Below are positions 15,243 to 35,105 of a stretch of DNA of 64,000 nt, one piece after another. A program made the position numbers and the translations under genes. Source of the stretch: a virus; IMG/VR virus record IMGVR_UViG_3300032224_000723, positions 32,001-96,000 of that record; one strand, given 5' to 3'. Within the stretch, counting starts at the first letter, position 1. Each line of letters begins with the position of its first letter. The notes below the pieces were generated by a model that was not told the origin of the DNA, did not search any database, and saw nothing but the letters and a program-made list of their open reading frames with translations.

Positions 15243-17952
15243 GTTCATTACCGATTTATTTGAAGCAAAAAACACGCCTGTGATAGTAACATATCCAGGA
15301 CGCTTCCAACCCTTTCATCAAGGCCATGCAGGTGTATTTGCTGAACTGCAAAAACTCTTTGGCAAAAATAATGTTTATATCCTAACCAGCAACGATCAAT
15401 CAGGACCTAAGAGTCCTTTTAATTTTGCTGACAAACGTCAACTAATGACGGCTGCGGGTGTTCCTGGAGATCACATTGTACAGACTACTGCAATGTACGC
15501 ACTTCCAGAAGGATTTGACCCACGCAATACTATATTTGTCACAGCAGTGGGCGCACCCGATGCTGATAGACTAAACCCAGACTCAGTACTCAAAAGAGAC
15601 AAAAAAGACAAAGACGGCAATATAATAAAGCCTGCAGGCAGTCCAGGATACTACAAGACTTGGGGTGGTGCGGCTCAAGCAGTCACAGCAGATCAACACG
15701 GATATGTTGTTGTAATTCCTGAAATACACAAAGAAGTTAAAATTAAAGATCGTGTCTACGATGTAAGTCATGGCACAGAATGTCGTAACCTATGGAATAT
15801 GATACGTGGTGATGCTAAAGCCAGGTCAGAATTTTTAAGTCAGTTATATGGTAGACCTGATGCTAAGTTAGGACAAATATTTGACAAGATTCCTGCAGCA
15901 GTAGCAGAAGGTGATCCAGCGACTGCCACAAGAGGAGATCCTCATCCTGAAAATGATTTTTATTTTCCCGTCAAAGATCAATGGCCTGAAAAACTTGGCC
16001 CAATGGGCAAAGTGGCAGAAGATGCACCTCCTGGTGCCAAAGCTGAACGTATGGTCAAGCATATTAAAAAAGGATATGCTCGGGACGGTAAACTAACTGA
16101 CAAAGAAAAATCAATTGCTTTTGCCACAGCATGGAAGGCACACAATGCTGGAAAAGTAGAAGAAACAGATATCAATGCAGTAGTAGACACTAATACAGAT
16201 GCCCGCGGGAAACAAGATACATTAGGACTTAATGTTGGCACAAAAGTGGGCCCAGGTAATGCATCAGTACAACCAATAGCATCAGTTTCCCAAGACTATG
16301 ACCCAACACAAGTAACTGCTGGTGTTAATGCAAATTATGGATTGGATGTGGGCAAGGGCAGTGTCACTGCTGGCGTTACAAGAATGAGGGGCATGCCTAA
16401 CAACCAATTTAATCTACAAGCAAACTATCCAGTGGGCAGTGGCAATTTTAATGCTGGAGTATCTAGCTCCAAAGATCAGCCAAATAATATTAATCTAGGA
16501 TACTCTAATGGTGGATTTAATATTGGTTACAATCAATCTCAAGATGGTAAAAATAAAAATCTAGTAGCCAAATACACAAAGACTTTTGAAGAGTGGAGTC
16601 AAAAGTATAAGAAAAGTATCAACTGTAGTCATCCAAAAGGCTTTAGTCAAAAGGCTCATTGTGCTGGTAAAAAGAAACACAATGAAAGCATTGAAATGGA
16701 AATGACATGCCCTGATTGTGGCATGTGCGAAACACACGGTGATCATTCAAAAAATAAATTAGACGAATTAAAGTGCTGGCCAGGTTATACTAGAGTTCAA
16801 GGTGTACCAGCTGGTGCTCCAGGTAGTTGCAAAAAGAAAAAGAAAACTAACGAAGCAGGATCACCGGCACAACAAGCCGCTATTGCTATTGCAATGAAAA
16901 AAGCTGGCAAGAAACCAAAGCACGTTGACGAAGATGCTGCCGGAGTAGGTGTTGTTGCCACAAATAAGAAAATGGCAAGAGATCCACGTTACTCTACTAG
17001 TATGACAGTAGATGTACATCCAGACACTCCCAAGAAACAACTCAAAGCACTGAAACTTGCTGAAATGAAACCCAGCGACTTTGAAATAAGAAACTTTGAA
17101 AAGCTGGATACTATATTAGCAGAACTATGCCGGCAAGTTATTGCACATCAAAAAAACGATGCCGACTATTGGGGTATGGTGGCTGCTTGTGTTGTTGATC
17201 CCGATGACAACGTAGTACCCGGCATTAATTATTTAGACGATAGCGGCAAGCGTGTTCACGCAGAACGTGCAGCCATTGATTCCTATCGTGAACACTTTGG
17301 CGAAATACCTGAAGGCAGTATCATTGTTACTACACTAAGCCCTTGCTGTCATCCATTGGAAGAACGCTATGGTGAAAGTTGTACTGAACTAATCAACGAC
17401 ACAGACGTACACAAAGTCTATTGTGGATACAAAGATCCTACGCAAGAACAAACAATGAATCGTACATTCCATATAATGCAGACACGTAATGCTAGCATTG
17501 TGGAACTATGTAAATCATTTGCAGATACATTTCTTGGCAAAATAAACGAAGAAACTGAAAACAAACACAGCATTGACGAAGATGAAATGATGGTCATGGT
17601 CCGAGAGTTTTTGCCAGTGGCTATGAAGGATTTAAAGATTAAACGTCTACCACACATTGTGCTACAACCTTATGTAGAAGAACACGATGGACAAGCAACA
17701 TTTGGTAGATTTGTTGATTCTGAAGAACGCATTTATCTGGGCATTGCGGATCGTCATCCTGTGGACATACTACGCACATTAGCACATGAACTAGTACATT
17801 TTAAACAGTACGAAGATGATAAGATGTATCCAGGTGCTGGCCAAACAGGTAGCCCGATTGAAAACGAAGCACACGTTGTAGCAGGCATTATCATGCGTCA
17901 CTTTAATAAAAAGTATCCCATGGCCATTAAGTCCAAACCCCTGGAGTTATAA
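15241..17952 (+). CDS. Mosaic internal-virion-type polyprotein: HxGH nucleotidyltransferase + beta-rich module + short Cys/Lys peptides + Zn deaminase + HEXXH metallopeptidase
   Basis: MFITDLFE N-terminus; PGRFQPFHQGH; HAE...SPCC; AHELVH; modules separated by VAE/VEE/FEE/LDE/VDE/LAE/IDE. Confidence 0.7.
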   Translation: MFITDLFEAKNTPVIVTYPGRFQPFHQGHAGVFAELQKLFGKNNVYILTSNDQSGPKSPFNFADKRQLMTAAGVPGDHIVQTTAMYALPEGFDPRNTIFVTAVGAPDADRLNPDSVLKRDKKDKDGNIIKPAGSPGYYKTWGGAAQAVTADQHGYVVVIPEIHKEVKIKDRVYDVSHGTECRNLWNMIRGDAKARSEFLSQLYGRPDAKLGQIFDKIPAAVAEGDPATATRGDPHPENDFYFPVKDQWPEKLGPMGKVAEDAPPGAKAERMVKHIKKGYARDGKLTDKEKSIAFATAWKAHNAGKVEETDINAVVDTNTDARGKQDTLGLNVGTKVGPGNASVQPIASVSQDYDPTQVTAGVNANYGLDVGKGSVTAGVTRMRGMPNNQFNLQANYPVGSGNFNAGVSSSKDQPNNINLGYSNGGFNIGYNQSQDGKNKNLVAKYTKTFEEWSQKYKKSINCSHPKGFSQKAHCAGKKKHNESIEMEMTCPDCGMCETHGDHSKNKLDELKCWPGYTRVQGVPAGAPGSCKKKKKTNEAGSPAQQAAIAIAMKKAGKKPKHVDEDAAGVGVVATNKKMARDPRYSTSMTVDVHPDTPKKQLKALKLAEMKPSDFEIRNFEKLDTILAELCRQVIAHQKNDADYWGMVAACVVDPDDNVVPGINYLDDSGKRVHAERAAIDSYREHFGEIPEGSIIVTTLSPCCHPLEERYGESCTELINDTDVHKVYCGYKDPTQEQTMNRTFHIMQTRNASIVELCKSFADTFLGKINEETENKHSIDEDEMMVMVREFLPVAMKDLKIKRLPHIVLQPYVEEHDGQATFGRFVDSEERIYLGIADRHPVDILRTLAHELVHFKQYEDDKMYPGAGQTGSPIENEAHVVAGIIMRHFNKKYPMAIKSKPLEL

Positions 17953-19466
17953 TGCGAGCACATGAGTTTATAACAGAAGCCAAAACAACCCGAGAAGATT
18001 TTGAGGGCATGACCATTGAGATGGTTAAGAATGGTCATGTATTAGTGATCAATGCGCTTGATGATTGGGGCAATAACGTATTGGGTTCTGTTGCTTTTAA
18101 CATTGGCGATGACAATGAACTAGATCCGCAAGACTTAAAAGTTGATGAAAGATATCAAGGTCAAGGTATTGCTAAAATAATGTATGATTATGCAAAAAGC
18201 AAAGGCTACGAGATTCATCGTAGCTATGACCAGACTGATGCAGGCAAGGGTTTTTGGGACAAGCATCGCGGAGAAGATGTTCGTGTTTGGGAAGCCTTTA
18301 ACCGACCTTATAAAGGTAAATGGGAAAAGAGTGAATATAGTGGTAGTGTTGATGTATTAACCAAGTTGCCTGACGGAACACATTTGAGTATTATGTTCAA
18401 TGATGAAGGTGATGGAGAATATCAAGTTGAATTTCATAGAAACAATAGTCAATCAGTTACTGGCGAAGGTGACGCTCAACGAATATTTGCCACAGTATTA
18501 GCAGCCATACAAACATTCATTAAAAAATACAAACCCTGGCGTTTAACATTCTCTGCAAGTAAAGAAATAGACATGGACGCAGATTATGACCAGGCACGAT
18601 TTAATCCAGAAAGTCGTGCTAAGTTATACAACAGAATGGTACAGCGTTATGCAAGAGCATGGGGTTATGAGGATTATGCTGAGGATCATGGCGACCAAAT
18701 CACATATGAACTTACACAATTAAAGCAAGGTGCAGTAAAAGAAGATGTTCGTGTTTGGGAAGGCAAACAAACTGTTACTGAATACAGAGATAGGATGTAT
18801 CAATATCTCAAGAGTATTGTTCCAAATTGGCCAGACTATATTGTAAAAGATTGGTTATATGCCAACTTTGCCAAAGGACCAACACAAACCGCCAACTGGA
18901 GTTTTGAAACTATAGGAAAAGATATTCCTGTTATGTTAAAGGACATGGGACTAAGCGTTAACACCAATTGGCAACTTGTACCTAATATGAAGTTTACGAT
19001 GAACATGTGGGAACCAAAAACTTTAAAACGCCTACAAGCCAGAGCAGGTGGTAATACTAAAAGTGCGGACCCTATGGTACATATACCTGCCAATGATGCC
19101 GAACGTCATGCCACACAGGCTGCACTTGCAAAGCAACAAGGCGGTGTGCGTAATGAGCCTGTTATCTTAATGAAAACTGCACAAGGTTATGAATTGCTTG
19201 AAGGCTGGCATAGAACTATACAACATTTTGCTATGTATCCACAAGGTTATACTGGTCCAGCTTATGTAGCAGTAGCTGGTGCTGTACAAGAAAACTTTGC
19301 CGACGGACGTAATCCACAAGACAAAGGCGATAGCAAACGCTATCATGTACCTACTAAAAGCAGTGTCAGCAACTTACGCAAATTTGCTAAAAGTCACAGT
19401 GGACGTGCGGCACAGTTAGCACATTGGGCCGCAAATATGAAAGCTGGCAGGGCTAAAAAGAAATGA
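17952..19466 (+). CDS. Mosaic polyprotein: GNAT acetyltransferase + unknown module + ParB/Srx-like module + basic tail
   Basis: MRAHEFITE N-terminus; VDERYQGQGIA and AGKGFW (GNAT); EPVIL...LLEGWHR (ParB-like). Confidence 0.7.
   Translation: MRAHEFITEAKTTREDFEGMTIEMVKNGHVLVINALDDWGNNVLGSVAFNIGDDNELDPQDLKVDERYQGQGIAKIMYDYAKSKGYEIHRSYDQTDAGKGFWDKHRGEDVRVWEAFNRPYKGKWEKSEYSGSVDVLTKLPDGTHLSIMFNDEGDGEYQVEFHRNNSQSVTGEGDAQRIFATVLAAIQTFIKKYKPWRLTFSASKEIDMDADYDQARFNPESRAKLYNRMVQRYARAWGYEDYAEDHGDQITYELTQLKQGAVKEDVRVWEGKQTVTEYRDRMYQYLKSIVPNWPDYIVKDWLYANFAKGPTQTANWSFETIGKDIPVMLKDMGLSVNTNWQLVPNMKFTMNMWEPKTLKRLQARAGGNTKSADPMVHIPANDAERHATQAALAKQQGGVRNEPVILMKTAQGYELLEGWHRTIQHFAMYPQGYTGPAYVAVAGAVQENFADGRNPQDKGDSKRYHVPTKSSVSNLRKFAKSHSGRAAQLAHWAANMKAGRAKKK
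18272..18762 (+). repeat. 23-bp direct repeat AGAAGATGTTCGTGTTTGGGAAG (18272-18294, 18740-18762) flanking an in-frame module
   Basis: Identical copies 468 bp apart, both encoding EDVRVWE. Confidence 0.9.
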
Positions 19467-19999: not shown

Positions 20000-20298
20000 A
20001 CGAAGTAAAAATTACAGCAGATATCTACTGCGATCACAATTTTAGACCACTTGAGTTTGCTACAGATGGGGAAAAGTCCTATAGAGTATATGTAAACGAC
20101 GACTTAATAACAGAACGCACATATATTTGGCATAATAACGAATACTTTGTGCGGGAAAACATTGTAGTTAGGTTACCTGCAGGCGAACACAAATTTAAAG
20201 TAGTACCGGCGTATCCATTCTTTAATGTATTTTTCTTTAAAAACTTTACAGTAAATGATCAGTTACAACTTTATGATGGCCAATTCCATATAGACTAA
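19996..20298 (+). CDS. Hypothetical phage protein
   Basis: ORF with ATGA overlap. Confidence 0.6.
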   Translation: MNEVKITADIYCDHNFRPLEFATDGEKSYRVYVNDDLITERTYIWHNNEYFVRENIVVRLPAGEHKFKVVPAYPFFNVFFFKNFTVNDQLQLYDGQFHID

Positions 20299-20324
20299 TA
20301 AATATAACATATTGAGGATTTCAC

Positions 20325-21317
20325 ATGAAAAGCTACGATTTTTTAACTGAAGGCATTGTCGAAGACGCACACGAAATGCACCAGGATCACGAAGTACAAA
20401 TGGCACGTAAGGACTGCTACCAAGCCGCAGAAAATGCTATTGCACTACACAAACTACTGCGTCACGTCAGTGAAAATCAAGGCATTGAGGGATGGGTAGC
20501 TGCTAAAATTACATTGGCCAGCGACTACTTGAACACAGTGCGTGAATACTTGGAATACGAACTAATGAATCAGCACAGCGAGCCAATGGCCGGTGCTCCT
20601 GTTAGTGTTGAGTTTCCTATTGCCGAAAGTCGTCAGATAGACGAAAGCAAAATGAAGGATCTAGACTTAGATTTAAAAAAGCCTCCAGTGGGCATGACAG
20701 ATCAAGCGTTTAAGAAAAAATACAACATGACCAAAGCAGAAGCTAATTCTAAGTTTTCTGCTAAAAAAGAAGTTGAAGAAGGCGTCATTGGTAAAAAGAA
20801 GCCTAAAGCAGATAGTTACCACATTGTTGGCAAAGATGGCAAGCCAGTAAACCTAGCTAGTTATAATGACCGTGCAAGTGCTGAAAAGGATCGTGACGAA
20901 AAACATCCTGGTGCTAAAGTACAACAAGTTGGCGCAAGAGGTAAAGTTAAAGGTGTTACAGAAAATGTTGATGCCAATACAATTTGGAATCAATATGGTC
21001 ATTACTCTAAGGATGACTTAATGCAGGAATTCCCACAATTAAGTCCTAAAGATGCACAGACTATTGTTAACTTTGCTGAATATGGTTGGACAAATATGCC
21101 TAACCGTCAAGAGTATAGAGATGAAGTAATAAAGAGAGTACTACATGCTATGAGCGGACGACAAGGTGTTTCAGAAATGAGCGCAGGTAGTGTTGCTACT
21201 GTGGTCAATCCTACACCTAAGAACAAAGCAAAAGTAGGTACACTGTTTGGTGGCACTTATCAAAGAGAAGAAGCAGATACTCCTTCTAAAAAAAGAATGT
21301 TTAATAAAAAGGCCTAA
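20325..21317 (+). CDS. Mosaic internal-virion-type polyprotein
   Basis: MKSYDFLTE N-terminus; junctions IVE, IAE, IDE, VEE, GVTE, QGVSE; TAAATA 20299-20304 and GAGG RBS. Confidence 0.65.
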   Translation: MKSYDFLTEGIVEDAHEMHQDHEVQMARKDCYQAAENAIALHKLLRHVSENQGIEGWVAAKITLASDYLNTVREYLEYELMNQHSEPMAGAPVSVEFPIAESRQIDESKMKDLDLDLKKPPVGMTDQAFKKKYNMTKAEANSKFSAKKEVEEGVIGKKKPKADSYHIVGKDGKPVNLASYNDRASAEKDRDEKHPGAKVQQVGARGKVKGVTENVDANTIWNQYGHYSKDDLMQEFPQLSPKDAQTIVNFAEYGWTNMPNRQEYRDEVIKRVLHAMSGRQGVSEMSAGSVATVVNPTPKNKAKVGTLFGGTYQREEADTPSKKRMFNKKA

Positions 21318-21320
21318 GCT

Positions 21321-22790
21321 ATGAGCGACCTACGCCAACTAATTGCAAAAATGGACCAAATCGAATCGGGTTCATTGCCAAAGAAGAAAAAAACTATTAA
21401 AGAAGATGCTGCTATTCCTGTGTCATCGGGCGGCGATATTATTGGTGGTATAAAATCACTGGGGCCTAAAGTAGCTAAAAAAGTTGTCCCTGCATTGGGT
21501 TTCGTTGATGCTGGAATGAGAGCACACGAAGGTGATTACACTGGTGCGGCTATAGGCACTTTGGGCGGCATTACTGGCGCAATACCACATCCGATAGCAC
21601 AAGGTATATCATTGAGTGCAGATGCTGTAAATCAATTACGTGACTACGCCAAGGAAAAAGGCGGATGGGGCGAAGTAGCCAAAGAAATTAGTCAGTCAAT
21701 GAAAAGCCATGATGATAATAATTTTCTTCCTGAAAATTTAGAAACATTAGACGAAGAAGGACTACGTAGTTGGTTAGCTAAAAAAGGTATTAGTGCTGCT
21801 GAATATTTAAAAAATTTAGTTAAGCCTGCAGAAAAAGAAATTGCTGATGTAAGTGCTGCCCGCCCAACTGATATTTCTGGAATCGGTTCTGATGTTCCTG
21901 GCACGATAAGAGTTGGTACTCCAGCAAAACCACCCGAAGTTCCTTCAGCAGCCACAACTACAAAATCACTGGATCAACGTGCCCAAGCTGCGAGCGAGAT
22001 AAATGCAAAATTAGATACGTTACCAAAACCTAAAATAAATGCTAAAGATTATCAAGCACAATTAGCAAAACAACAAGAACTAGAAAAACAATTAAAAGAT
22101 CCAAGACCCGCAGTATGGAAAGATCCAAGAAATCCTGAATTGCCAGCGTCAAAATCTCCCCCAGCGGCAAATGTGGAACCTCCACAACCATTGAATGGTA
22201 AATCATTTAAAGATGCTTCAGCAGAAGTTAATAAAACCACCGGGCCTAAAGTAAATAGAGATGAGTTAGGAAGACCGTTGGACAATCAAGGTCGAAACAC
22301 CACAACCTTAGGTGGTGAGCCTATTACCTATGATGCAGCCGGTAATCCTAGCATTGGCACTACGCCTAAATCTAATTTTAATAGACCAAGTTCAGCTAGA
22401 GGTGACACAGAAATGGGTCCTGAAATAGATCCTAATGCACCACCTGAATGGTTTCAACAATGGCAGGCAAACCAGCAAGCCCAGCAATTACCCCAACCGC
22501 CGGTAGATGCAGACAAGCCGGGTATATTGAAATCAATTGGCAAAGCAATGTGGAATAATCCAAAAACAACTGCCGCAGTTGCCACTGGGGCAGAGTACGA
22601 AAGAGAAAAAAATGCTAACTGGAAAGGTGCTAAAGCAGCTGGTCAACTTGCACACCCAGATGATGATTTTTGGTCATATCAAAATCAAATAAAAGACTTT
22701 GGTGTTAAACCAGAACTAAAAACTCCTACCAAAGAATCATTACAAAATAAATTGTTTAACGAATTTAAAACATTTGTAGAAAAGAAATAA
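21321..22790 (+). CDS. Large Pro-rich, probably virion-associated protein
   Basis: MSDLRQLIAKMDQIE start; IKE, LDE, FVE sites; Gly-rich hydrophobic segment. Confidence 0.55.
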   Translation: MSDLRQLIAKMDQIESGSLPKKKKTIKEDAAIPVSSGGDIIGGIKSLGPKVAKKVVPALGFVDAGMRAHEGDYTGAAIGTLGGITGAIPHPIAQGISLSADAVNQLRDYAKEKGGWGEVAKEISQSMKSHDDNNFLPENLETLDEEGLRSWLAKKGISAAEYLKNLVKPAEKEIADVSAARPTDISGIGSDVPGTIRVGTPAKPPEVPSAATTTKSLDQRAQAASEINAKLDTLPKPKINAKDYQAQLAKQQELEKQLKDPRPAVWKDPRNPELPASKSPPAANVEPPQPLNGKSFKDASAEVNKTTGPKVNRDELGRPLDNQGRNTTTLGGEPITYDAAGNPSIGTTPKSNFNRPSSARGDTEMGPEIDPNAPPEWFQQWQANQQAQQLPQPPVDADKPGILKSIGKAMWNNPKTTAAVATGAEYEREKNANWKGAKAAGQLAHPDDDFWSYQNQIKDFGVKPELKTPTKESLQNKLFNEFKTFVEKK

Positions 22791-22791
22791 C

Positions 22792-24873
22792 ATGAGTGAT
22801 ATGCGCCGACTACTAGAAGCCATGGACAGCATGAGTCGTGCTGAGAAGAAACCCACAGGTCCAAAATTTCCAGGTTACTGGAAAGGTACAGATCCTGCCA
22901 GTGCTGCTAAAAATAAAATGGTTGGCGGCTGTGAGCAAGAAAGTGTTATTCCCGAACTAGCAAAAACAGCAAAGAAGAAATCTACAGAATGGGAATTAGA
23001 AGAAGCATTCAAACAATTTAAAGAAGGCGAATTTAGACGAGACGTTATCCCCCAACAACAAGCACCAGTGAATACTAAATTAGATCCAGGATATGGAAAG
23101 CCTTTAGATAGACTTCCTGATCCTCAAGGAGATCAAAGCGGCGGATTTAAGAAAGTACTGCCCGGTGAAAAATTTGATAAAGACCAATGGTCTCTGCCAG
23201 GTAAACCTAGCGGTACTCCTAATTTGCCAGTTAGTCCTGATGTCAATACCCCATTATATACACCGCCGTATGCAGGTGATCCAGGTCTGGGAGTAAAAGT
23301 TCCCACTGATAGATTTGATGTCATTGGTGATGGGCCCACCTATGCACAAGGAATCAGACCTCCTTATCAAGCCAGATATAAACCTGGCAAAGAACCTGTA
23401 GAATTAAAAACAACAGAACCGCCAGTTTCAGTAGCTGGTCCAGAGCAAGAAAAATTTGATGTTAAGACTAATTCAATTAAAGTTAATCCAGCAACTGGTA
23501 ATGTTACTAAACAAGATAAACCTGAATTTGCTGGTCCCACAGATACATTTATCAAAGATAAGAATGGCAAGTGGGTAGAGAATCCAAAATACTCAAAGCC
23601 TAATACAGATATTAGTCCAGAAGAAAATGCTGAAATTGATCAACAAATAAAACAACAGCAACAAGTACAGCAACCACCGGAAGTTAAACCTGCCCCAGAA
23701 GTTAAATCAGTATCCACTACTGGTTCAGATACACTAAGAACTAATATAAACAAAGCCAGTAGCGGAAGTGACAACTCTGCCGTTAAAACTGGAACCTCTT
23801 CTCCCACACAAACTGAGCCAGAACCTCGACCAGGTAGCTGGCAAGAACTTGCAAAACTGAATAATATCACTGATCCTACTAAATTACGTGCAGGACAAAC
23901 AATTAGATTGCCGGACGACAGTAATTATACCATAAGTCCAAATGATACACTTAGTGGCATTGCTCACTCCTTGCGTACTACTGGTCAGCCACCAGGACAA
24001 CTAAAAAGCCAAAAAACTACGCAAGCTGATCGAGATCAAACTCCACCGTCCGATGGGACAGCAAAATCTGTAACTACTACACCAGTATATGTGGGTGGTA
24101 AGGCTAAAAGAAAAGCAGCGACTATTACAACACCAGAGATTAATTATTCACGAGACCCTGATGTCATGTCTGATCCAACTGCACCAGAAACTAAAGGATA
24201 TCAACGTAGTCCAGAACAAAAAGCCGCAGATGCGGCTGCACTAGCCGCGGCAGAACGAGCAGAAAGAGCACGACAAAAACTAAGATCGAACTTGCCGCAA
24301 TCAAAAAACAAACCAAAACCTCAAATCGCTGTTCCTGAATCATTCAGTCAACGACTAGCCAAAGACTTCGAACAGTTTTTAGAATCAGACGAGCCTTATT
24401 CGGGTTACGATCAAGATGTTAAAAAATTAAAACAACGTGCCAAGTTAGGCCCGATGAAAACTGTATGGGATGAGAAAACACAGAGATATCGTGTAGTACC
24501 AGTTAAGCCACAGGAAAAACAAATTAAAGAATATGGTAATGCACAAGACGCTAACCAACAAGCTACTAATGCCAACCAACAACAAACATCGCAAACAGGT
24601 GACCAAAAAGCCATAGACCAACAAGTAGACATTGCCACTGCTAAGTCAACAATGTCTGGCTTAAAAAATGTTCTTGGTCCACAACTTAATACCAATGCTG
24701 CTGCCAGTGGTGTTGTAAAAATGAATGACGGGAAACCTTTATCAGTACCAGAACGTGAAGCGATAAGTACACTAACACCATTGGTATCAAAAGCAGCAGA
24801 AAATCCTGCTACCGCCAGTGCATTAAAGTCAGCGTTAAGTACAGCAGGTATGTTGGCCAAGCAAGGAAAATAA
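22792..24873 (+). CDS. Large low-complexity virion-type protein with LysM-like segment
   Basis: MSDMRRLLE start; LAKLNNITDPTKLRAGQTIRLP and YTISPNDTLSGIA. Confidence 0.6.
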   Translation: MSDMRRLLEAMDSMSRAEKKPTGPKFPGYWKGTDPASAAKNKMVGGCEQESVIPELAKTAKKKSTEWELEEAFKQFKEGEFRRDVIPQQQAPVNTKLDPGYGKPLDRLPDPQGDQSGGFKKVLPGEKFDKDQWSLPGKPSGTPNLPVSPDVNTPLYTPPYAGDPGLGVKVPTDRFDVIGDGPTYAQGIRPPYQARYKPGKEPVELKTTEPPVSVAGPEQEKFDVKTNSIKVNPATGNVTKQDKPEFAGPTDTFIKDKNGKWVENPKYSKPNTDISPEENAEIDQQIKQQQQVQQPPEVKPAPEVKSVSTTGSDTLRTNINKASSGSDNSAVKTGTSSPTQTEPEPRPGSWQELAKLNNITDPTKLRAGQTIRLPDDSNYTISPNDTLSGIAHSLRTTGQPPGQLKSQKTTQADRDQTPPSDGTAKSVTTTPVYVGGKAKRKAATITTPEINYSRDPDVMSDPTAPETKGYQRSPEQKAADAAALAAAERAERARQKLRSNLPQSKNKPKPQIAVPESFSQRLAKDFEQFLESDEPYSGYDQDVKKLKQRAKLGPMKTVWDEKTQRYRVVPVKPQEKQIKEYGNAQDANQQATNANQQQTSQTGDQKAIDQQVDIATAKSTMSGLKNVLGPQLNTNAAASGVVKMNDGKPLSVPEREAISTLTPLVSKAAENPATASALKSALSTAGMLAKQGK

Positions 24874-24874
24874 A

Positions 24875-27262
24875 ATGAATTTACATAGTTTGTTTGAAAA
24901 TGTAGCAGAAGAAAAATGTCCGCATTGCAATGGGCCAATGTTCAGTGAACTAATGATCAATGAAAAGAAAGATGCTTGCTACTACAAAGTCAAGAGTCGT
25001 TATAAAGTATGGCCCAGTGCTTATGCCAGTGGTGCATTAGTTAAGTGTCGCAAAAAAGGCGCAGACAGTTGGGGCAATAAATCGGAAAGCGTGGCGGAAG
25101 CCACAGGTGATGAGAAGTTTGATACCATGATGGGCAGGATACAGCAAGAACCAAAGTATCCTGATTCACAAATGCCTCCAACAGATGTAAAAGATCTGTA
25201 TCAATGGGCAGTCAAAAACAACAAGCCGTATCATAAAATTTTTGCTGAATGGGCCATGAGAGAGGGTTACAAGTCTGTTGCCCCGGCATTACAGAAAGCG
25301 GGTAATTTAGATAGTGACGCTTTAGATTATTGGACTCCACGTGTTTGGAAAATATATTGGGGCGAAGTCCGGGGTATTGATTCAGAAATGCCCCCAGAAT
25401 GGGCCAAAAAACGTATACCTGCGGAATTGAGATATTATCTTGATGATGTGTTTGATGCTTATGATCGTATAGTGTTTGATTGGCCCACAGAATATCGTCA
25501 GATTGGTCAGCAAGGCATGGCGGAAGGTTTAGATAAACCTGAAGAAAAATCTATGTATGATTATCGTGGTGTTCCTGGTTTAGATAAACCTGAAGAAAAA
25601 TCTATGTATGATTATCGTGGTGTTCCTGGTTTAGATAAACCTGAAGAAAAATCTATGTATGATTATCGTGGTGTTCCTGGTTTAGACGAAGGCATGAAAG
25701 CCGATGAGCTTTCACGCTACTGTGAAGAACTTGTGGCAGAAAAAGGCTGGGATGCCGCATACAAACATGCTAGATTTATGGCACAAGGTGCTACAGATCC
25801 TGCCTGGGGCAGTGTATTAAAATATCTTCATGCCATGAAAGACGGAGTATCAGAAGATCAACTAGACGAAAATTTACGTCAGTGGTTCAAAGAAAAATGG
25901 GTACGATTTGGTCCAGACGGAAAGATTCGCGGAGACTGTGCCAGAGGAGATGACAGCGAAGGTAAGCCAAAATGTTTGCCTCAAGCCAAAGCACACGCAC
26001 TGGGTAAAAAAGGTCGTGCCAGTGCTGCCGCAAGAAAACGCAGAGAAGATCCCAATCCTGAACGCCGCGGCCCTGCACACAATGTTGCTACAAAATCTGA
26101 AAGCTCGTTAAACGAATTTGCGCCAGGCAGTGATGACGGCAACGATGGATTCAGTGATGAAATACTAAAGCGTTTAGCCGCACAATGGTGGCAAGGTGAC
26201 GAAGATCCAAGAGTAGAACGCACACTAGCGGCCGCTGGTTGGGAAATTGGGCAAGACGAAGGCTATGACAACGGTGGTGTATTTGTTGTAATGTCCGGTG
26301 ATGAGCATGGCCGCAGTTACATGAGCTGGCCCGCAGAAGAGTTGGAAGGCTTGTCGGAAGGCTACTACAATGACATAGGTCCGGAATACGGTGGTGCTGG
26401 CAAGGGTCGTTCCGAAGATGCAATGATGACTACCAAACTTACTAGACAAGCAAAAGCTGCCGCCAAAAAAGCTGGCAAAACATTTAATACCAGTGCTGAA
26501 TATCGTTTGTGGCATAGGAAACAAAAAGAAAAACAAGGTGTGTCGGAAGCACAAACTGATTATCAAAAGCGCCGTCAACGTGAACGTGATGTAGATGCAG
26601 GTAAGCCAGTTAAACGTCAACCAAAGAATCCACAGAATGATTATTTTGCACGTCGTAAAAAAGAACGAGACTTAGCAGAAGACCAAGCTGTACAACTATC
26701 ACCTAATATATCAGCAAGACCAAATCAAGATCCTGACTCGCCCGAAGACTATGACTACTTTTATAAAGACATGCAGGTAATGCCCGGGCAAGATTTTCAC
26801 ACACAGATAAAAGATCAACATCTACGTCAAATGGATCCTGCATATAATACTATGCGAACAGCATTTGATAACCCTATTAAGCCAGGACCGACTACAACTT
26901 ACAAAGAACCTAAGGGCGACACAATAATCCCAGTGCGTCCGCAAGAGCCAGAAAAAATGAAGGACATAGAAGGCAATCCTGTTAGACTAAGAGATTATGT
27001 TCCCGGTGATCCAAGGATATCAGAGTCTCGCTTATACTATAATGTCATAGGCACAGCAGATAAAGAACTACGTTCAGCCTTTGGTATGAGAAAAGATAAA
27101 AACGGTTGGTTCTTAAAAGAATCCAGCAGTACAAAATATAAAATGATGGCGCAACGTGCATTTGGTAGTCCTAAGTTGCAGGAATATAATTTTCCTGCAG
27201 GGCAAGCTACTAAAGGCAGTGAAGGTGTAATCAGTCCTGTTGGCTCTATCCCACGTAATTAA
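24875..27262 (+). CDS. Mosaic internal-virion-type polyprotein (about 10 or more modules)
   Basis: MNLHSLFE start; junctions VAE, INE, SVAE, QGMAE, LDE, GVSE, LNE, GLSE, QGVSE, LAE, ISE, LQE. Confidence 0.65.
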   Translation: MNLHSLFENVAEEKCPHCNGPMFSELMINEKKDACYYKVKSRYKVWPSAYASGALVKCRKKGADSWGNKSESVAEATGDEKFDTMMGRIQQEPKYPDSQMPPTDVKDLYQWAVKNNKPYHKIFAEWAMREGYKSVAPALQKAGNLDSDALDYWTPRVWKIYWGEVRGIDSEMPPEWAKKRIPAELRYYLDDVFDAYDRIVFDWPTEYRQIGQQGMAEGLDKPEEKSMYDYRGVPGLDKPEEKSMYDYRGVPGLDKPEEKSMYDYRGVPGLDEGMKADELSRYCEELVAEKGWDAAYKHARFMAQGATDPAWGSVLKYLHAMKDGVSEDQLDENLRQWFKEKWVRFGPDGKIRGDCARGDDSEGKPKCLPQAKAHALGKKGRASAAARKRREDPNPERRGPAHNVATKSESSLNEFAPGSDDGNDGFSDEILKRLAAQWWQGDEDPRVERTLAAAGWEIGQDEGYDNGGVFVVMSGDEHGRSYMSWPAEELEGLSEGYYNDIGPEYGGAGKGRSEDAMMTTKLTRQAKAAAKKAGKTFNTSAEYRLWHRKQKEKQGVSEAQTDYQKRRQRERDVDAGKPVKRQPKNPQNDYFARRKKERDLAEDQAVQLSPNISARPNQDPDSPEDYDYFYKDMQVMPGQDFHTQIKDQHLRQMDPAYNTMRTAFDNPIKPGPTTTYKEPKGDTIIPVRPQEPEKMKDIEGNPVRLRDYVPGDPRISESRLYYNVIGTADKELRSAFGMRKDKNGWFLKESSSTKYKMMAQRAFGSPKLQEYNFPAGQATKGSEGVISPVGSIPRN
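25526..25686 (+). repeat. Perfect 51-bp tandem repeat x3 (+8 bp) encoding GLDKPEEKSMYDYRGVP
   Basis: Units 25526-25576, 25577-25627, 25628-25678. Confidence 0.95.
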
Positions 27263-27287
27263 ATAAATAAGACATAAGGTATGTAAA

Positions 27288-27722
27288 ATGGATGAACTCA
27301 TTAAAGCAATGAAAATTGCATTTGCAACAGAATATGGCTTTGCTGTAAAAGCACAGTTTTGCCATTGGAATGTAATAGGACCAGAGTTCCCACAATACCA
27401 TGCATTGTTTGACACTATCTACACAGAAGTATATGGCAGCATTGATCCATTTGCTGAAAATATTCGTAAGTTAGGTAGTTATACTCCAGGTAGCTTCCAA
27501 CGTTTAAGTATGTTAAGTCAAATCGACGAAGACCTTGAAGTTCCCCCTGCTATGACTTTAGTCGCTGGTTTATTAGAAGACAGCGAAAAATGTAGTAGAC
27601 TATTTAAAATGGTTTATGATCTAGCAGAGCGCGAAGGCAAACATGGCCTAAGCAACTTCCTAGCAGAACGCATGGATGCACATGACAAGCACTCTTGGAT
27701 GCTTAGATCAACTTTAAAATAA
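27288..27722 (+). CDS. dps: Dps DNA-protection/mini-ferritin protein
   Basis: HWNVIGPEFPQYHALF, D..AENIRKLG, HDKHSWML. Confidence 0.9.
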   Translation: MDELIKAMKIAFATEYGFAVKAQFCHWNVIGPEFPQYHALFDTIYTEVYGSIDPFAENIRKLGSYTPGSFQRLSMLSQIDEDLEVPPAMTLVAGLLEDSEKCSRLFKMVYDLAEREGKHGLSNFLAERMDAHDKHSWMLRSTLK

Positions 27723-27729
27723 TTAATCA

Positions 27730-28848
27730 ATGAATTCAACTTATTGCAGTGCCGTGGACACGGGACTGTTTGTTAGTACTCAAGGTCAGGTAGGGTTATG
27801 TTGCAGTGGAGCACAGCCTTTGGGTAACATCAAACAACAACCCATTAAAGAAATATTTGCTAAATCAAAGTTTCCAGAAATACGTCTAGCACTTAAAAAC
27901 AATCAACCTCATGAATATTGTTCAGGCTGTGATAGAACTGAGCAACAAGCCGCAGGATCTAGTCAGCGCAGTGCGTTTAATGATCAATTCCCCAATCCCA
28001 CAAAACGTGAAATTAAACTAATTGATGTACGTTGGAGCAACGTCTGTAATCTAAGTTGCAGATATTGTAACGTATACGACAGCAGTGAGTGGAGTAGAAT
28101 TATGAACATTCCTATTCCGTCAGTGAATAAAGACTACACCGATTCCTTATTTGAGGAAATTGCAGAAAATAGAGATTCTATTGAGTGTATGTATTTGTTA
28201 GGCGGTGAGCCACTGATGCAAAAGCACAACGAAAGATTGTTAGACATCATTAATCCTAGTGTTAAGATAGATGTGCTAACCAATCTCAGTGTTAAATTAG
28301 ATAAAAATAAAATCTATGAAAAACTAAAAAAGTTTCCAATGGTACTTTGGAATTTAAGTTTTGACAACATCGGTGATAGGTTTGAGTATGTTAGACATGG
28401 TGCTAAGTGGGATATATTCACAGACAATATAAAACAACTATGCGATGACTTTGGCGCACATAGAATAACATTTCACCCAGTGTATACCATTTGGAATGCA
28501 TTGAACTTAGAAGAATATTACGAGTTTGCCAGCAAACAAAACTTCAGAGTTAATTGGCAAATGGCCATGCCCAAATCAGGAATAAGTGATATAGAAACAG
28601 AAAGTTTTATTACATTTGGACACAAGTCCAGTATTATGACCGCAGCCATAAAAGAAATAGAATCTGTAAATGTTGCTGACCCTATAGTTGATAACATCAA
28701 ACAAAGTTTAATCAACAACATTGAAATTCCCAATAAGGATCAAGACTTCTTAACATGGACTGCACAGTCTGAAAGTATTATACCACCCAACAAACCATTT
28801 AGCGAGCTATGGCCTGAGTTAAATAAGTTATTAACAGGCACACAATGA
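27730..28848 (+). CDS. Radical SAM protein with N-terminal SPASM/twitch domain
   Basis: CNLSCRYC, GGEP; N-terminal C..CC...CxxC. Confidence 0.85.
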   Translation: MNSTYCSAVDTGLFVSTQGQVGLCCSGAQPLGNIKQQPIKEIFAKSKFPEIRLALKNNQPHEYCSGCDRTEQQAAGSSQRSAFNDQFPNPTKREIKLIDVRWSNVCNLSCRYCNVYDSSEWSRIMNIPIPSVNKDYTDSLFEEIAENRDSIECMYLLGGEPLMQKHNERLLDIINPSVKIDVLTNLSVKLDKNKIYEKLKKFPMVLWNLSFDNIGDRFEYVRHGAKWDIFTDNIKQLCDDFGAHRITFHPVYTIWNALNLEEYYEFASKQNFRVNWQMAMPKSGISDIETESFITFGHKSSIMTAAIKEIESVNVADPIVDNIKQSLINNIEIPNKDQDFLTWTAQSESIIPPNKPFSELWPELNKLLTGTQ

Positions 28849-29546
28849 CTGAACTCATATACACATTAATCGTAACACATATCACAATTATTTGTGTTAC
28901 GGTGTTTTTACATCGCGGCCAAGCACACAGAACATTGATATTCAGTCCTGTGCTCAGTCATTTCATGCGTTTTTGGTTATGGTTAACTACTGGTATGGTC
29001 ACTAAAGAGTGGGTGGCAATACATCGCAGACATCATGTTAGCAGTGATTCTCCAGGGGATCCGCATAGCCCACATGTATTTGGTATATGGCGTGTGTTAT
29101 TTGGCGGAGCATTGCTGTATAGAGATAGTTCTAAAAATTCTGCCATAATAGCGCAGTACGGTATAGGAACACCTGACGATTGGATCGAACGTAAGGTATA
29201 TACTCCTTATAACTTCTTAGGCATTCTTCTAATGCTGGCCATTGACTTGTTGTTATTTGGTCCATGGGGATTGGTAGTATGGGGCATACAAATGATTTGG
29301 ATTCCGTTTTGGGCTGCTGGAGTCATTAACGGACTAGCACACTGGTGGGGGTATCGTAATGGTGAAACTAAAGATAAAAGTACGAACATTAGTCCTTGGG
29401 GTATTATTATTGGCGGTGAATGTCTGCACAATAATCATCATTTGGAACCCGCGAATCCTCGCCTCAGCCGTCGCTGGTTTGAATTTGACATAGGATGGCT
29501 GTATATAAAGATATTCGAATTTTTAAGACTCTTAAAGATAAAATGA
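28845..29546 (+). CDS. Membrane fatty acid (delta-9-type) desaturase
   Basis: His boxes HRGQAH, HRRHH, HNNHH; TM segments. Confidence 0.9.
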   Translation: MTELIYTLIVTHITIICVTVFLHRGQAHRTLIFSPVLSHFMRFWLWLTTGMVTKEWVAIHRRHHVSSDSPGDPHSPHVFGIWRVLFGGALLYRDSSKNSAIIAQYGIGTPDDWIERKVYTPYNFLGILLMLAIDLLLFGPWGLVVWGIQMIWIPFWAAGVINGLAHWWGYRNGETKDKSTNISPWGIIIGGECLHNNHHLEPANPRLSRRWFEFDIGWLYIKIFEFLRLLKIK

Positions 29547-34003: not shown

Positions 34004-35105
34004 AATTATACCGCTAATTAAGATCAATAACCCCGTCTATGCTGAAAGGAATCCTCTCAGCGAAAGTGATGTTGCAGACGATCACAAGTGGAACTATAAG
34101 CAAAGGTCAATGAACTTTGGCAAGGATTTAAATTTAAAAGGTCAGTATTGTTATCATCCGTTTAATACTATCACCATTGATAAATTTGGTGATGTTTACA
34201 CATGTATATGCCAAGCATGGTTGCCTGTTAGTATGGGCAAAATAACAGACTTTAATTCTTTCGAAGAAATTGTACAAAGTGTTCGAGCCCGAGAAATACA
34301 AGCCAGTATATTAGATGGAACTTACAAATATTGCGATGAAAATAGTTGTACTATTATTAAAGACGATCAATTGTCAAATAGCATAAGTCACAGAGTTGAT
34401 GTTATTGATTGGATTAATTTTGCATTAGATGATAGCTGTAATTTAACTTGTCCCAGTTGTCGAACTGAATTTAAATTTGTCAGTGAAGGCACTGAATACG
34501 ATTTAAGAATCAAAATAGTCAATCACTTAATTAAGTTAATAGAAAACTATGATTATAAACTTAAATTTACTTTAAGTGGAGATGGCGATCCGTTTGCTAG
34601 TTTGATATATCGACATTTTTTAACTAATTTAGAATTGACTAATAATAAAAATATTGAAATAGAAATAGTAACTAATGGTGTATTGGTAAAAGATCATTGG
34701 CATAAAATGGCCGGAGTCTACAACAACATTGTTAGATTTAAGGTTAGTTTTGATGCAGGCACTAAACAAGTATACGAAAAAATACGTCGTGGCGGGAGTT
34801 GGGAAAAACTTTTAGACAGTGCAAAATATATTGTAGATTGGAAAAAATCTAACAATTCAAAGTTAACTTTGGCTTCGAATTTTGTAGTACAAAATGATAA
34901 CTATACAGATATTCCTGCTTATGTAGAATTATGTGATGGGTTAGGGTTTGACGAAATAAACTTTCAAAAAATTGACAACTGGGGAACTTTTAAAAACTTT
35001 AAAGAACACGCAATATGGCAAGTTGATCACCCTAATCACCAAGATTTTTTAATACATCTGCAAAAAATAAATCTAAATAAAAAAGTAAATCTAAATAATT
35101 TATAA
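33996..35105 (+). CDS. Radical SAM protein with N-terminal SPASM/twitch domain
   Basis: CNLTCPSC, GDGDPF, TNG; N-terminal CYHP..C.C...C. Confidence 0.85.
   Translation: MNKIIPLIKINNPVYAERNPLSESDVADDHKWNYKQRSMNFGKDLNLKGQYCYHPFNTITIDKFGDVYTCICQAWLPVSMGKITDFNSFEEIVQSVRAREIQASILDGTYKYCDENSCTIIKDDQLSNSISHRVDVIDWINFALDDSCNLTCPSCRTEFKFVSEGTEYDLRIKIVNHLIKLIENYDYKLKFTLSGDGDPFASLIYRHFLTNLELTNNKNIEIEIVTNGVLVKDHWHKMAGVYNNIVRFKVSFDAGTKQVYEKIRRGGSWEKLLDSAKYIVDWKKSNNSKLTLASNFVVQNDNYTDIPAYVELCDGLGFDEINFQKIDNWGTFKNFKEHAIWQVDHPNHQDFLIHLQKINLNKKVNLNNL

Follow-up and report, generated by a model that had tools for sequence, protein, structure and literature searches.

The T4 internal proteins IPI, IPII, IPIII and Alt carry a short leader, ending in hydrophobic-x-Glu, that is removed by the prohead protease gp21; what remains after cleavage is diverse, with no relation from one protein to another. 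In ipII and ipIII the first 32 bases of the leader are the same, and Repoila and co-workers are said to have linked, in 1994, the conserved leaders of internal proteins to recombinational shuffling. Cleavage by gp21 follows L/I-X-E, and the first 10 residues of IPIII are enough to direct it into the head (PMC9026906). In phiKZ, 201phi2-1 and SPN3US a gp21-related protease likewise cuts head and ejection proteins after Glu, sometimes at several sites per protein; its minimal motif is given as S/A-X-E or A-X-E, many head proteins are cut, and the accounts drawn on here mention neither a shared DNA linker nor module shuffling at the sites (PMC5694885, PMC9026906). Polyvalent proteins of phages and conjugative elements (Iyer et al., 2017; PMC5512222) enter with the invading DNA as strings of domains that are not related to one another; they are highly mosaic and have been compared to viral polyproteins. 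Their release is attributed to embedded peptidase domains, and the part of the description used here reports no fixed DNA linker.

Module exchange at short repeated elements forms a second body of work. The 'Recer' interdomain sequences of Gram-positive surface proteins were reportedly proposed by de Chateau and Bjorck, in 1996, to allow in-frame module exchange. GRINS are DNA-level elements at module borders in polyketide synthase genes, for which gene conversion or module exchange has been proposed in the account available (PMC8256042). The PeSL (promoter-early stem-loop) cassettes described in T4-type phages by Arbiol et al. (2010; PMC2839356) are accessory units flanked by short repeats; in that account no dedicated recombinase is involved, and the insertions, deletions and replacements that distinguish close relatives are put down to recombination between the repeats. 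As described there, PeSLs combine an intergenic early promoter with a stem-loop terminator and flank whole genes. In the T-even gp38 and tail-fibre adhesins (Trojet et al., 2011; PMC3157838) the conserved glycine-rich motifs are presented as structural parts of the core of one folded domain, in contrast to linkers that join separate modules and can be cleaved.

The locus analysed here recalls the T4 internal proteins in its leaders, in the diversity of what follows them and in the fixed DNA of its joints. While T4 internal proteins are single-module genes, it chains many modules in one frame with internal joints, so that several products would come from one gene; the joint word is common to many genomes and to unrelated modules. 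Unlike PeSLs, the joints are coding, in frame and double as a putative protease site. They share with Recer and GRINS the character of DNA-level elements at module borders, although those belong to other organisms, have other sequences and, as far as the GRINS account goes, are not protease sites. A literature search found no published description of such a joint. We consider it probable that the joint is the coding sequence of a dual-use linker, a predicted cut site and crossover point in one, and that the polyproteins containing it are cargo targeted to the capsid of a T4-like jumbo phage.

A mosaic polyprotein and its joints

The window, the whole stretch of 64,000 nucleotides that was analysed, is part of a 157-kb fragment (G000) from an uncultured T4-like jumbo phage of a lake. 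It was compared with 78 related IMG/VR loci (L numbers), with related genomes G001-G008 and with contigs from other samples (X runs). The DNA polymerases of G001 and G007 are 74% and 71% identical to that of the window, and recombination genes of T4 type were identified, among them one like gp47/SbcD.

The 795-aa ORF (24875..27262, + strand, as are all features below) reads as a mosaic cargo polyprotein in which a leader, MNLHSLFENVAE/ (the slash marking the putative cut after Glu), is followed by about eight modules split by hydrophobic-x-Glu joints. Its PHROG matches are only to families of unknown function; no Pfam family was found in it at E<=0.01, nor any peptidase domain of the kind to which the release of polyvalent proteins is attributed. 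Its modules occur in other orders and combinations across the 78 related loci (A then D in 13 loci, D ahead of A in 4, A-B-C-D in the window). The ends of tblastn and blastn HSPs cluster at its joints, the internal sites VAE, MAE, LDE, VSE, LNE, LSE and VSE coinciding with HSP borders.

At the end of the leader, joint J0 (24902..24910) is GTA GCA GAA, VAE/E in ordinary codons, and nucleotide similarity to module A begins at 24901-24917 in 17 relatives. J1 (25085..25100; GAAAGCGTGGCGGAAG, E-S-V-A-E/A, with the rare GCG codon) separates modules A and B. Similarity to module B begins at 25077-25091 in L002-L005, and the HSPs of these loci end at 25517-25534, around J2 (25511..25526; CAAGGCATGGCGGAAG, QGMAE/G), with which the module ends; the break points of L002, L003 and L004 lie inside or just past this joint, and run X9 has a loose end at 25511. 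The whole module from J2 to the next joint is filled by a perfect tandem repeat, three copies of the 51-nt unit GLDKPEEKSMYDYRGVP (25526..25686; copies 100% identical, spacing 51), for which no nucleotide homologue was found among the relatives. The joint that closes it, J2b (25679..25693; GGT TTA GAC GAA GGC, GLDE/G), is decayed: other samples have ...CAAGGTGTGGCG directly before 25688, and loose ends before this position end in AAGGTGTGGCG in X2 (3 contigs) and X6 (1 contig). The basic module D starts at J3 (25844..25855; GGA GTA TCA GAA, GVSE/D), its similarity beginning at 25846-25865 in at least 20 relatives. A second site type, SLNE/F (26105..26116; TCG TTA AAC GAA), is marked by HSP ends at residues 409-417 and comes, in relatives, after QGVAE/ (...QGVAE/GSLNE/FAPG). 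L001 is 90.6% identical to the window over 26346-28000 and unrelated upstream, the switch lying inside J4 (26345..26360; GAAGGCTTGTCGGAAG, EGLSE/G). At J5 (26534..26549; CAAGGTGTGTCGGAAG, QGVSE/A), a loose end is found before 26546 in X2 and an HSP of L028 starts at 26529. The TCG codons are single-base derivatives of the canonical GCG, as is read from the G that other samples show at 26543 (T>G in two contigs of X2 and one of X4).

The first-pass annotation had drawn a junction motif from six strings, all of which are present at the positions given for them and in frame. Four are in ORF 24875-27262: CAAGGCATGGCGGAAGG (25511, QGMAE), GAAGGCTTGTCGGAAGG (26345, EGLSE), CAAGGTGTGTCGGAAGC (26534, QGVSE) and GTGGCGGAAG (25091, SVAE). 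The other two, CAAGGTGTTTCAGAA (21162, QGVSE) and AAAGGTGTTACAGAA (20949, KGVTE), are in ORF 20325-21317. Its list of junctions was incomplete, with NVAE/E at J0, GLDE/G at J2b, GVSE/D at J3 and SLNE/F overlooked.

The pattern SAAGGYDTGKCGGAAG, with up to two mismatches, is matched 4 times in the 64-kb window, always inside the 795-aa ORF; shuffling gives 0.33 expected matches, and none of 100 shuffles reaches 4. With up to four mismatches to the family consensus allowed, the 157-kb record as a whole has 5 matches, of which 4 fall in this ORF, all on the + strand, and shuffles of the record give 0-5 matches, scattered. A chance or compositional artefact could invoke the loose peptide G[LIVM][AST]E, which is not enriched genome-wide (11 observed, 8.0 expected), 6 of the 11 being in the two ORFs, which make up 2.4% of residues. 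The shuffles, the concentration of matches within a single ORF and the recurrence of the word in dozens of other contigs refute this reading, to which we attach practically no weight. The earlier observation that NCG codons are uncommon was borne out in this genome (GCG is 7.3% of Ala and TCG 4.0% of Ser codons; GTG is 16% of Val codons). GCG-GAA accounts for 6 of 156 Ala-GAA pairs, 3 of the 6 in the 795-aa ORF, and TCG-GAA for 5 of 111 Ser-GAA pairs, 3 of the 5 in the same ORF; these low counts indicate that there is no general codon-context bias.

Neighbouring putative cargo proteins and the protease-site reading

Further putative cargo proteins are found nearby. A 504-aa protein (17952..19466) has the leader MRAHEFITE/A, followed by GNAT-like, DUF6934-like and further modules, and a 330-aa protein (20325..21317) has the leader MKSYDFLTE/G. 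Both match the pattern of the T4 capsid targeting sequence (MKTYQEFIAE/A in ipII/ipIII), a leader of about 10-20 residues with L/I-x-Glu at its end; that of the 795-aa ORF, MNLHSLFENVAE/E, is less T4-like. The looser joints of the 330-aa protein, KGVTE/N (20949-20963) and QGVSE/M (21162-21176), both stand opposite x-E joints in the protein alignment with L004, whose nucleotide match (21157-21263) begins at the 21162 joint. As a module border the 20949 site is weak: it aligns with the L004 joint KKLGMAE/G, but at only 36% identity. Two ORFs of the same gene block (21321..24873), one of 489 aa (21321-22790) and one of 693 aa with a LysM domain (22792-24873), may possibly encode further cargo proteins. 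The latter has end modules in common with L004; no relatives of the former were found among the related loci compared.

The 504-aa ORF also contains a second, unrelated type of DNA-identical joint, a perfect 23-nt direct repeat encoding EDVRVWE/, whose two copies (18272..18294 and 18740..18762, 100% identical) bracket a 468-nt in-frame module. In relatives this module stands alone, and GVAE/, GVTE/, PITE/, NVDE/ or DINE/ comes before it. Immediately before the DUF6934-like module, the one module followed across relatives, [V/I]-x-E is kept in 6 of 6 contexts (window, L002, L006, L018, L026, L031) and the other residues vary.

At the module borders of the 795-aa ORF the internal joints have a hydrophobic residue at P3 and Glu at P1, and their form, [V/L/M]-[A/S]-Glu, fits the L/I-X-E motif of T4 gp21, so that they resemble protease sites. 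The 157-kb record yielded no protease, capsid or portal gene, and the enzyme is therefore inferred from relatives: Peptidase_S77 profile matches are present in G001 (1.9e-23) and G007 (8.4e-25). It was not found in G000, G002-G006 or G008, among which G000 and G006 are also without a capsid gene. Together with the T4-like leaders of the neighbouring ORFs, these features make the cleavage code suggested by the first-pass annotation plausible at the level of sequence. The homologue in cyanophage S-P4 is, by annotation only, a 'structural protein' among head and tail genes.

Conservation of the joint as DNA

The joint in relatives reads CAA GGT GTG GCG GAA GGC, and the family consensus is (G)AG CAA GGT GTG GCG GAA GGC. 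The junction word originally noticed is real, and the form in which it was quoted is a local, decayed version of this consensus. Codons were counted at 45 distinct G[LIVM]AE joints from 19 related loci, with the same ORFs as background. Ala is GCG in 36 of the 45, against 8.7% in the background (binomial 3e-30, the copies not being independent), Val is GTG in 33/37 against 31%, Gly is GGT in 35/45 against 40%, and Gly at P1' is GGC in 17/23 against 34%. In contrast, codons are scrambled in invariant motifs within the modules of the same loci (Val: GTA 5, GTG 4, GTT 4, GTC 1; Ala: GCC 11, GCA 10, GCT 6, GCG 4), which upholds the idea of conservation at the DNA level beyond the need of the peptide. 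The conserved stretch has sharp edges. Large relative genomes have about four exact copies each; in 5 of 5 such records every copy is on the coding strand, and none was seen out of the coding frame. Scanning IMG/VR for CAAGGTGTNGCNGAAGG gave at least 94 matches; among the 94 listed, 61 have GTG-GCG, and the QGVAE frame is open in 85.

A function at the protein level only, as protease site or flexible linker, would make the sameness of the DNA a matter of recent common descent with spreading modules. There is something to be said for this. In the 157-kb record no exact GGTGTGGCGGAA was found, and the copies of the window, two to four changes off the consensus, are decayed; uniformity is therefore not strictly maintained in this genome, and the changes (9 non-synonymous and 2 synonymous by hand count) accumulate in a nearly neutral way. 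Mosaic homologues are also found in the cultured cyanophages S-P4 and Syn9, and their joints, KEEVVAE/ and KEEVQME/, vary freely at silent sites, so that protein function needs no fixed DNA; likewise, only hydrophobic-x-Glu is kept at every border of a DUF6934-like module. We nevertheless hold this explanation to be improbable. GTG GCG joints persist beside modules that are just 42% identical in protein (L056), and break points lie in joints among pairs 90-98% identical. Moreover, as silent sites are scrambled within the modules, recency would apply to the joints alone, and this implies turnover at the joints.

A role in RNA or translation, with recombination incidental, is another way to account for fixed codons: the ribosome might pause at the rare GTG-GCG or at a Shine-Dalgarno-like AAGG...GGAAGG, letting each module fold before the next emerges. 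GCG is the rarest Ala codon of this genome, two AAGG stretches can be read in the motif, and the sharp edges and the restriction to the coding strand and, for most listed matches, to the open frame would all fit. The consensus codons CAA, GGT and GAA are, however, common ones; the codons at leader ends (NVAE/ and ITE/, for instance) are ordinary; and a possible structure of four GG runs is broken in about half of the joints, where P1' is not Gly. The EDVRVWE/ repeat, a different sequence, also brackets a module in the same gene block, so that the recurring feature is sameness of DNA and not one particular word. On balance we find such a role unlikely.

Module breakpoints at the joints

Nucleotide HSP ends fall within 10 nt of a joint Glu codon in 42 of 130 cases (7% expected) and within 30 nt in 90 of 130 (20% expected). 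As with PeSLs, copies of a short repeated motif mark the limits of indels and replacements when close relatives are compared. L007 and L008, 97-98% identical, differ by a replaced cassette, 702 nt in one and 853 nt in the other, that ends at a GTN GCG GAA GGC joint, and an X2 contig from another sample, 95-98% identical to the window, has a 243-nt in-frame insert at J1 between two copies of TGGCGGAAG. Loose ends at joints were seen in three runs. Together with the switch of L001 inside J4, these cases map cross-genome breakpoints to the joints at nucleotide resolution. Codon use at background level and breakpoints away from the motif had been named beforehand as the outcome that would speak against a DNA-level motif; both were examined and neither holds. 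Chimeric assembly could partly explain mosaic joins at short repeats in metagenome contigs. A k=31 assembly such as Logan's should not be misled by repeats shorter than 31 nt, and several arrangements are found in more than one independent sample (L011-L014).

The first-pass annotation had suggested an integron-like but in-frame cassette array. In a site-specific system of this kind the joint would be recognised, and cassettes mobilised, by a recombinase or nuclease dedicated to the task. The element is indeed short, sharp-edged and conserved at all positions, cassettes are gained, lost and replaced exactly at the joint, and there is an HNH endonuclease gene at 62722 to about 64026 (window coordinates), though no link between it and the joints was seen. 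A co-occurring recombinase was sought in six related records: the tyrosine recombinase family Phage_integrase (PF00589) was found in none of the six, with PF00589 controls positive in 14 of 14, and no Resolvase (serine recombinase) match exceeded the cut-off in any. No dedicated recombinase was found among the ORFs scanned, nor next to the polyprotein genes. The joint, as read from its sequence, is not self-complementary and has no inverted-repeat, attC-like form, and each cassette is a protein module in frame, where an integron would have promoterless genes. With no integrase found in any of the six records, the label 'integron-like' fails, and we consider such a site-specific system very unlikely. 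General short-homology recombination is the better reading, the joint repeats serving, as we infer, as crossover points for the general recombination machinery of the phage.

Discussion

The dual-use linker that we favour would operate as follows. The N-terminal leader, resembling the T4 capsid targeting sequence, would bring the polyprotein into the prohead, where a T4-type prohead protease (Peptidase S77) would cut after Glu at every hydrophobic-x-Glu joint, freeing about eight small, mostly basic modules that would remain with the DNA. As a pattern, a stretch of 15-21 bases is found unchanged in frame between modules that have no relation to each other, and this across many related phages; with these repeats as crossover points, whole modules could be swapped, inserted or deleted with the frame and the cut site preserved. 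Silent positions may be held uniform because exchange at the joints is repeated, or because modules that carry the standard joint spread better, and the copies of this genome, decayed by two to four substitutions, would still encode sites that can be cut. Some observations run against this dual-use reading. A length of 15-21 bases is short for homologous recombination, and recombination in T4 falls off below about 50 bp. With about four exact copies per large genome, partners for homogenisation within a genome are few, and the sharp edges of the motif also fit a sequence-specific nucleic-acid function.

A bolder proposal, possible but in our opinion doubtful, is that selection acts on the linker as an in-frame recombination signal that perpetuates itself, a lineage-wide standard of lake jumbo phages through which co-infecting phages trade capsid-delivered cassettes, the same five codons guaranteeing release by the head protease. 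It would then be an integrase-free coding counterpart of the integron, perhaps with an unrecognised nuclease starting the exchanges.

If the dual-use linker is what it seems to be, it would show how giant phages diversify the proteins that they inject with their DNA. One short word would be both the cut mark of the head protease and a frame-safe crossover point, so that ordinary recombination could add cargo to the capsid payload. It would provide a clear case of selection or molecular drive on the silent sites of a coding linker, and a rule, leader plus joints, for spotting capsid cargo in uncultured T4-like phages. It would also offer a natural model for packaging foreign proteins in the form of cleavable strings.

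A joint word fixed at the DNA level

The ORF at 24875-27262 (795 aa) encodes a putative cargo polyprotein whose modules meet at short hydrophobic-x-Glu linkers, the joints; in what follows a slash marks the presumed cut after the glutamate. All six junction strings quoted in the first-pass annotation were found in place and in frame, four of them in this ORF (joints J1, 25085-25100; J2, 25511-25526; J4, 26345-26360; J5, 26534-26549) and the two looser ones in the ORF at 20325-21317 (330 aa). With up to two mismatches allowed, the pattern has four matches in the 64-kb window, all within the 795-aa ORF. Shuffles gave an expectation of 0.33 matches and reached four or more in 0 of 100 cases; chance is excluded as an explanation. 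Across the whole 157-kb record, four of the five places that lie within four mismatches of the family consensus again fall in the 795-aa ORF.

It had been proposed that the NCG codons of the motif betray conservation of the DNA itself. These codons are indeed uncommon: Ala is encoded by GCG in 7.3% of cases and Ser by TCG in 4.0%. A general codon-context bias was tested and ruled out as the cause of the NCG-GAA pairs: GCG-GAA accounts for 6 of 156 Ala-GAA pairs and TCG-GAA for 5 of 111 Ser-GAA pairs, three of each kind lying in the 795-aa ORF. An independent preference for NCG did not survive. Position 26543 is G in contigs from two other samples, so that the codon there is the canonical GCG and not TCG, and immediately upstream of 25688 contigs of two metagenome runs (three from X2, one from X6) read ...AAGGTGTGGCG in place of the GGT TTA GAC of the window; the NCG codons of the window are therefore single-base derivatives of GCG. 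Among relatives, a Ser at P2 is encoded by TCG in only one of six cases, and a Thr there never by ACG. Each copy in the window is two to four substitutions away from the family consensus; what the window shows is a lineage-wide feature in decayed form.

In the relatives, we compared 45 distinct G[LIVM]AE joints from 19 related loci with the codon usage of the same ORFs. Gln at P5 is CAA in 34 of 35 joints (background 68%), Gly at P4 is GGT in 35 of 45 (40%), Val at P3 is GTG in 33 of 37 (31%), Glu at P1 is GAA in 41 of 45 (70%) and Gly at P1' is GGC in 17 of 23 (34%). Ala at P2 is GCG in 36 of 45 joints against a background of 8.7% (binomial 3e-30, for copies that are related and not independent). 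The decisive control comes from invariant motifs inside modules A and D of the same loci, where Val is spread over GTA (5), GTG (4), GTT (4) and GTC (1), and Ala over GCC (11), GCA (10), GCT (6) and GCG (4): silent sites are scrambled within modules but fixed at joints. The claim of DNA-level conservation is thereby borne out; the fixation is almost certainly real, and in the relatives it goes far beyond what the peptide needs.

A scan of IMG/VR for CAAGGTGTNGCNGAAGG returned at least 94 matches in at least 80 loci, with GTG-GCG in 61 of those listed; 85 of the 94 matches listed are open in the QGVAE frame, many between unrelated flanks. The conserved stretch reads (G)AG CAA GGT GTG GCG GAA GGC and has sharp edges, in a sample chosen in part by the pattern itself. 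Five records contain 4, 4, 1, 3 and 6 copies of the 12-mer GGTGTGGCGGAA, all clustered on the coding strand, and zero copies of its reversed control; in the large related virus records G006 and G007 the copies stand where leaders end and between modules. Mosaic homologues occur among the structural genes of the cultured cyanophages S-P4 and Syn9, and silent sites in their KEEVVAE/ and KEEVQME/ joints are not the same in the two phages. A link between GGC at P4 and ATG at P3 (four of six GMAE joints vs 4 of 39 others, two of the four being orthologous) does no more than suggest that joints are copied from place to place. A purely protein-level role of the joint combined with recent descent is an improbable account, as it does not account for joints that stay the same next to modules whose proteins share only 42% identity.

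Several other roles for the word were considered and set aside. A two-tetrad G-quadruplex (GG TGT GG C GG AA GG) behind GTG and GCG is ruled out, the P1' Gly being missing in 22 of 45 joints, and also by several joints with GTA or GCA, while most keep GTG GCG. A Chi-like or packaging site does not agree with only about four exact copies per large relative genome, all of them in frame and grouped within cargo genes. Internal starts of translation, prompted by the SD-like AAGG, were discarded on reading the consensus, which has no suitably spaced start codon.

Modules as units, with probable exchange at the joints

Another scan of IMG/VR gave 78 loci encoding parts of the 795-aa protein. In 13 loci module D (~328-414) comes directly after module A (residues ~13-72), and in four it comes before it, the window having the order A-B-C-D, and tblastn alignment ends cluster at hydrophobic-x-Glu sites. 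The ends of nucleotide high-scoring segments (HSPs) in the ORF tell the same: of 130 ends, 42 fall no more than 10 nt from the Glu codon of a joint, where 7% would be expected, and 90 no more than 30 nt away, where 20% would be expected; when the ends are merged into 44 distinct bins, 26 still lie within 30 nt. Module B is bordered by J1 and J2 in four related loci (L002, L003, L004 and L005), with different neighbours each time. Joints are module borders.

Closer comparisons place the changes in the joints themselves. Locus L001 is unrelated to the window 5' of J4 and 90.6% identical over 1655 nt from 26346, the switch falling inside the joint. Loci L007 and L008, otherwise 97-98% identical, differ in their cassettes (702 and 853 nt), which end at GT(A/G) GCG GAA GGC. 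In a 726-nt X2 contig, letters 1-83 correspond to 25018-25100 and letters 318-726 to 25092-25500, so that two copies of at least TGGCGGAAG enclose 243 extra nucleotides (81 codons), the surroundings being 95-98% identical to the window; in a contig of run X4, 26058 is joined to 24961, which places module D before module A. These contigs, which could be chimeric at short repeats, come from a set in which runs X3, X5, X7, X8 and X10-X20 were left aside for their small word shares. Genomes thus differ by whole modules at joints, and it is very probable that module exchange takes place there; whether recombination is also what fixed the joints appears to us evenly balanced. The first-pass annotation had seen here an integron-like array of in-frame cassettes. 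Its observation stands, and so do fixation of the DNA and exchange at the joints; the integron-like part falls, and a site-specific system of this kind is very unlikely, since neither Phage_integrase nor Resolvase over the cut-off was found in six related records (0 of 6 for each), leaving no recombinase to drive it.

A second type of joint is found in the ORF at 17952-19466, where a 23-nt sequence encoding EDVRVWE/ stands twice in the same orientation and without a mismatch (18272-18294 and 18740-18762), on either side of a 468-nt in-frame DUF6934-like module. The arrangement has the look of a cassette inserted recently, its joint duplicated. Among the relatives examined the EDVRVWE joint was not found, two matches being chance-like. 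A QGAVKE remnant stands just ahead of the second copy. This repeat also bears on an RNA-level or translational pause signal, which would suit the rarity of the codon and the sharply bounded motif; a pause fits poorly with a second, unrelated repeat and with leader sites that use ordinary codons, and we consider it unlikely.

Elsewhere in the polyprotein, three perfect 51-nt copies (GLDKPEEKSMYDYRGVP) in tandem at 25526-25686 make up an entire module, the last running into a decayed joint. An X9 contig matches the unit with zero differences, and the module is absent from all 78 related loci.

Leaders, cargo and predicted processing

The hydrophobic-x-Glu sites of the 795-aa ORF are at residues 10-12, 73-75, 215-217, 270-272, 325-327, 412-414, 493-495 and 556-558. 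Two further ORFs open with leaders that end in a site of this type, MRAHEFITE/A at 17952-19466 and MKSYDFLTE/G at 20325-21317, and T4 ipII and ipIII begin MKTYQEFIAE/A in the T4 record. In T4, according to PMC9026906, the first 10 residues of IPIII are enough for head targeting and gp21 cuts its substrates after L/I-X-E. The ipII and ipIII genes (L220, phage T4, 5417-6416) share their first 32 bases exactly, although the mature proteins are unlike; in a cultured phage, they are an existing example of leader and joint codons that are identical at the DNA level.

In G007 a Peptidase_S77 gene (L213, 6640-7272; 8.4e-25) lies between the portal gene and the scaffold-like and capsid gene, and the capsid protein has the N-terminus MSEQLLESRWGETKEALLE/G; the related record G001 also carries Peptidase_S77 (1.9e-23). 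The lineage has a prohead protease, which the phage of the window would share. The DUF6934-like module is preceded by GVAE/, GVTE/, PITE/, NVDE/ and DINE/ in five relatives and by RVWE/ in the window, hydrophobic-x-Glu alone being constant, as a protease site predicts, unlike a structural linker. The joints conform to the cleavage motif of this protease family and are probably cut sites. A single-sequence AlphaFold2 model of the 795-aa product was poor (mean pLDDT 45, pTM 0.24; pLDDT 56-84 only at residues ~270-330 and ~425-495) and was unused as evidence.

Several cargo proteins in this phage, G006 and G007 end in a common motif, ...GPMKTV(W/Y)D...R(Y)R(V/N)(V/M)P..., seen at 24400-24520 (ORF 22792-24873) and in loci L212 and L214; it may be a second, C-terminal signal for targeting or scaffold binding.

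The phage and its lineage

The window covers positions 32001-96000 of an IMG/VR virus record of 156,993 bases (completeness estimate 45%), which carries, by PHROG and Pfam scans, the gene set of a T4-like myovirus: a gp55-like late sigma factor, baseplate wedge and hub-lysozyme proteins, clamp loader and family B DNA polymerase, an SbcD/gp47-like nuclease, PhoH, MazG and a 4465-aa virion protein. Genes for a portal, protease or capsid were looked for on this 157-kb fragment and not found. Its DNA polymerase shares 71-74% identity with those of four other large records (G001, G006, G007 and G009; 168-343 kb); among cultured phages, Sinorhizobium phage Phosso (51.7%) and Agrobacterium phage Atu_ph07 (47.2%) match it best. 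A megablast search with 20000-28000 gave zero matches to cultured phages; contigs at least 90% alike are present in lake-water and aquatic metagenomes from other studies. G006 (343 kb) has no Peptidase_S77 and no match to the capsid protein or protease of G007, so its head module is simply missing from the record. CheckV nevertheless rates G006 99% complete, and its estimate is unreliable for this lineage.

Other genes deserve mention. GTP cyclohydrolase, QueD-like and QueE-like genes (45151-45891, 50238-50741 and 51360-52217) suggest 7-deazaguanine modification of the phage DNA. Radical SAM paralogues number more than ten in the record (27730-28848, 34110-35105 and 57587-58750, and beyond the window L081-L084), five of them consecutive on the minus strand (L082, 4021-10496). 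Directly 3' of the polyprotein (27288-29546) are Dps/ferritin-like, SPASM radical SAM and fatty acid desaturase genes, the first two kept in the same order in L001 at ~90% identity. A full-length ClpB/ClpA-like double AAA+ protein (758 aa) is encoded at 10659-12935.

A probable cut site that may double as a crossover point

Of the known systems, the T4 internal proteins, which carry a capsid targeting sequence and are processed by gp21, come closest. PeSLs, for which excised circles have been found, are shuffled at short repeated motifs without a recombinase (PMC2839356), adhesins are shuffled in frame at conserved motifs (PMC3157838), phiKZ-like phages cut head proteins at multiple sites (PMC5694885, PMC9026906) and polyvalent proteins are mosaic, delivered and multidomain (PMC5512222). 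Our literature search found no description of a joint word combining cut site and crossover.

We may picture the process as follows. The leader would load the cargo polyprotein into the prohead, where the protease would free the modules. The general recombination system of the phage would use the 15-21 identical bases of the joints as crossover points, and silent sites would be kept uniform by repeated exchange, or by the better spread of modules that carry standard joints. We favour, with some reserve, this reading of the joints as cut sites of capsid cargo whose DNA is fixed as crossover points of general recombination. The novelty lies in the combination: a single coding word, predicted to act both as cut site and as crossover point, that is common to a lineage and to unrelated modules.
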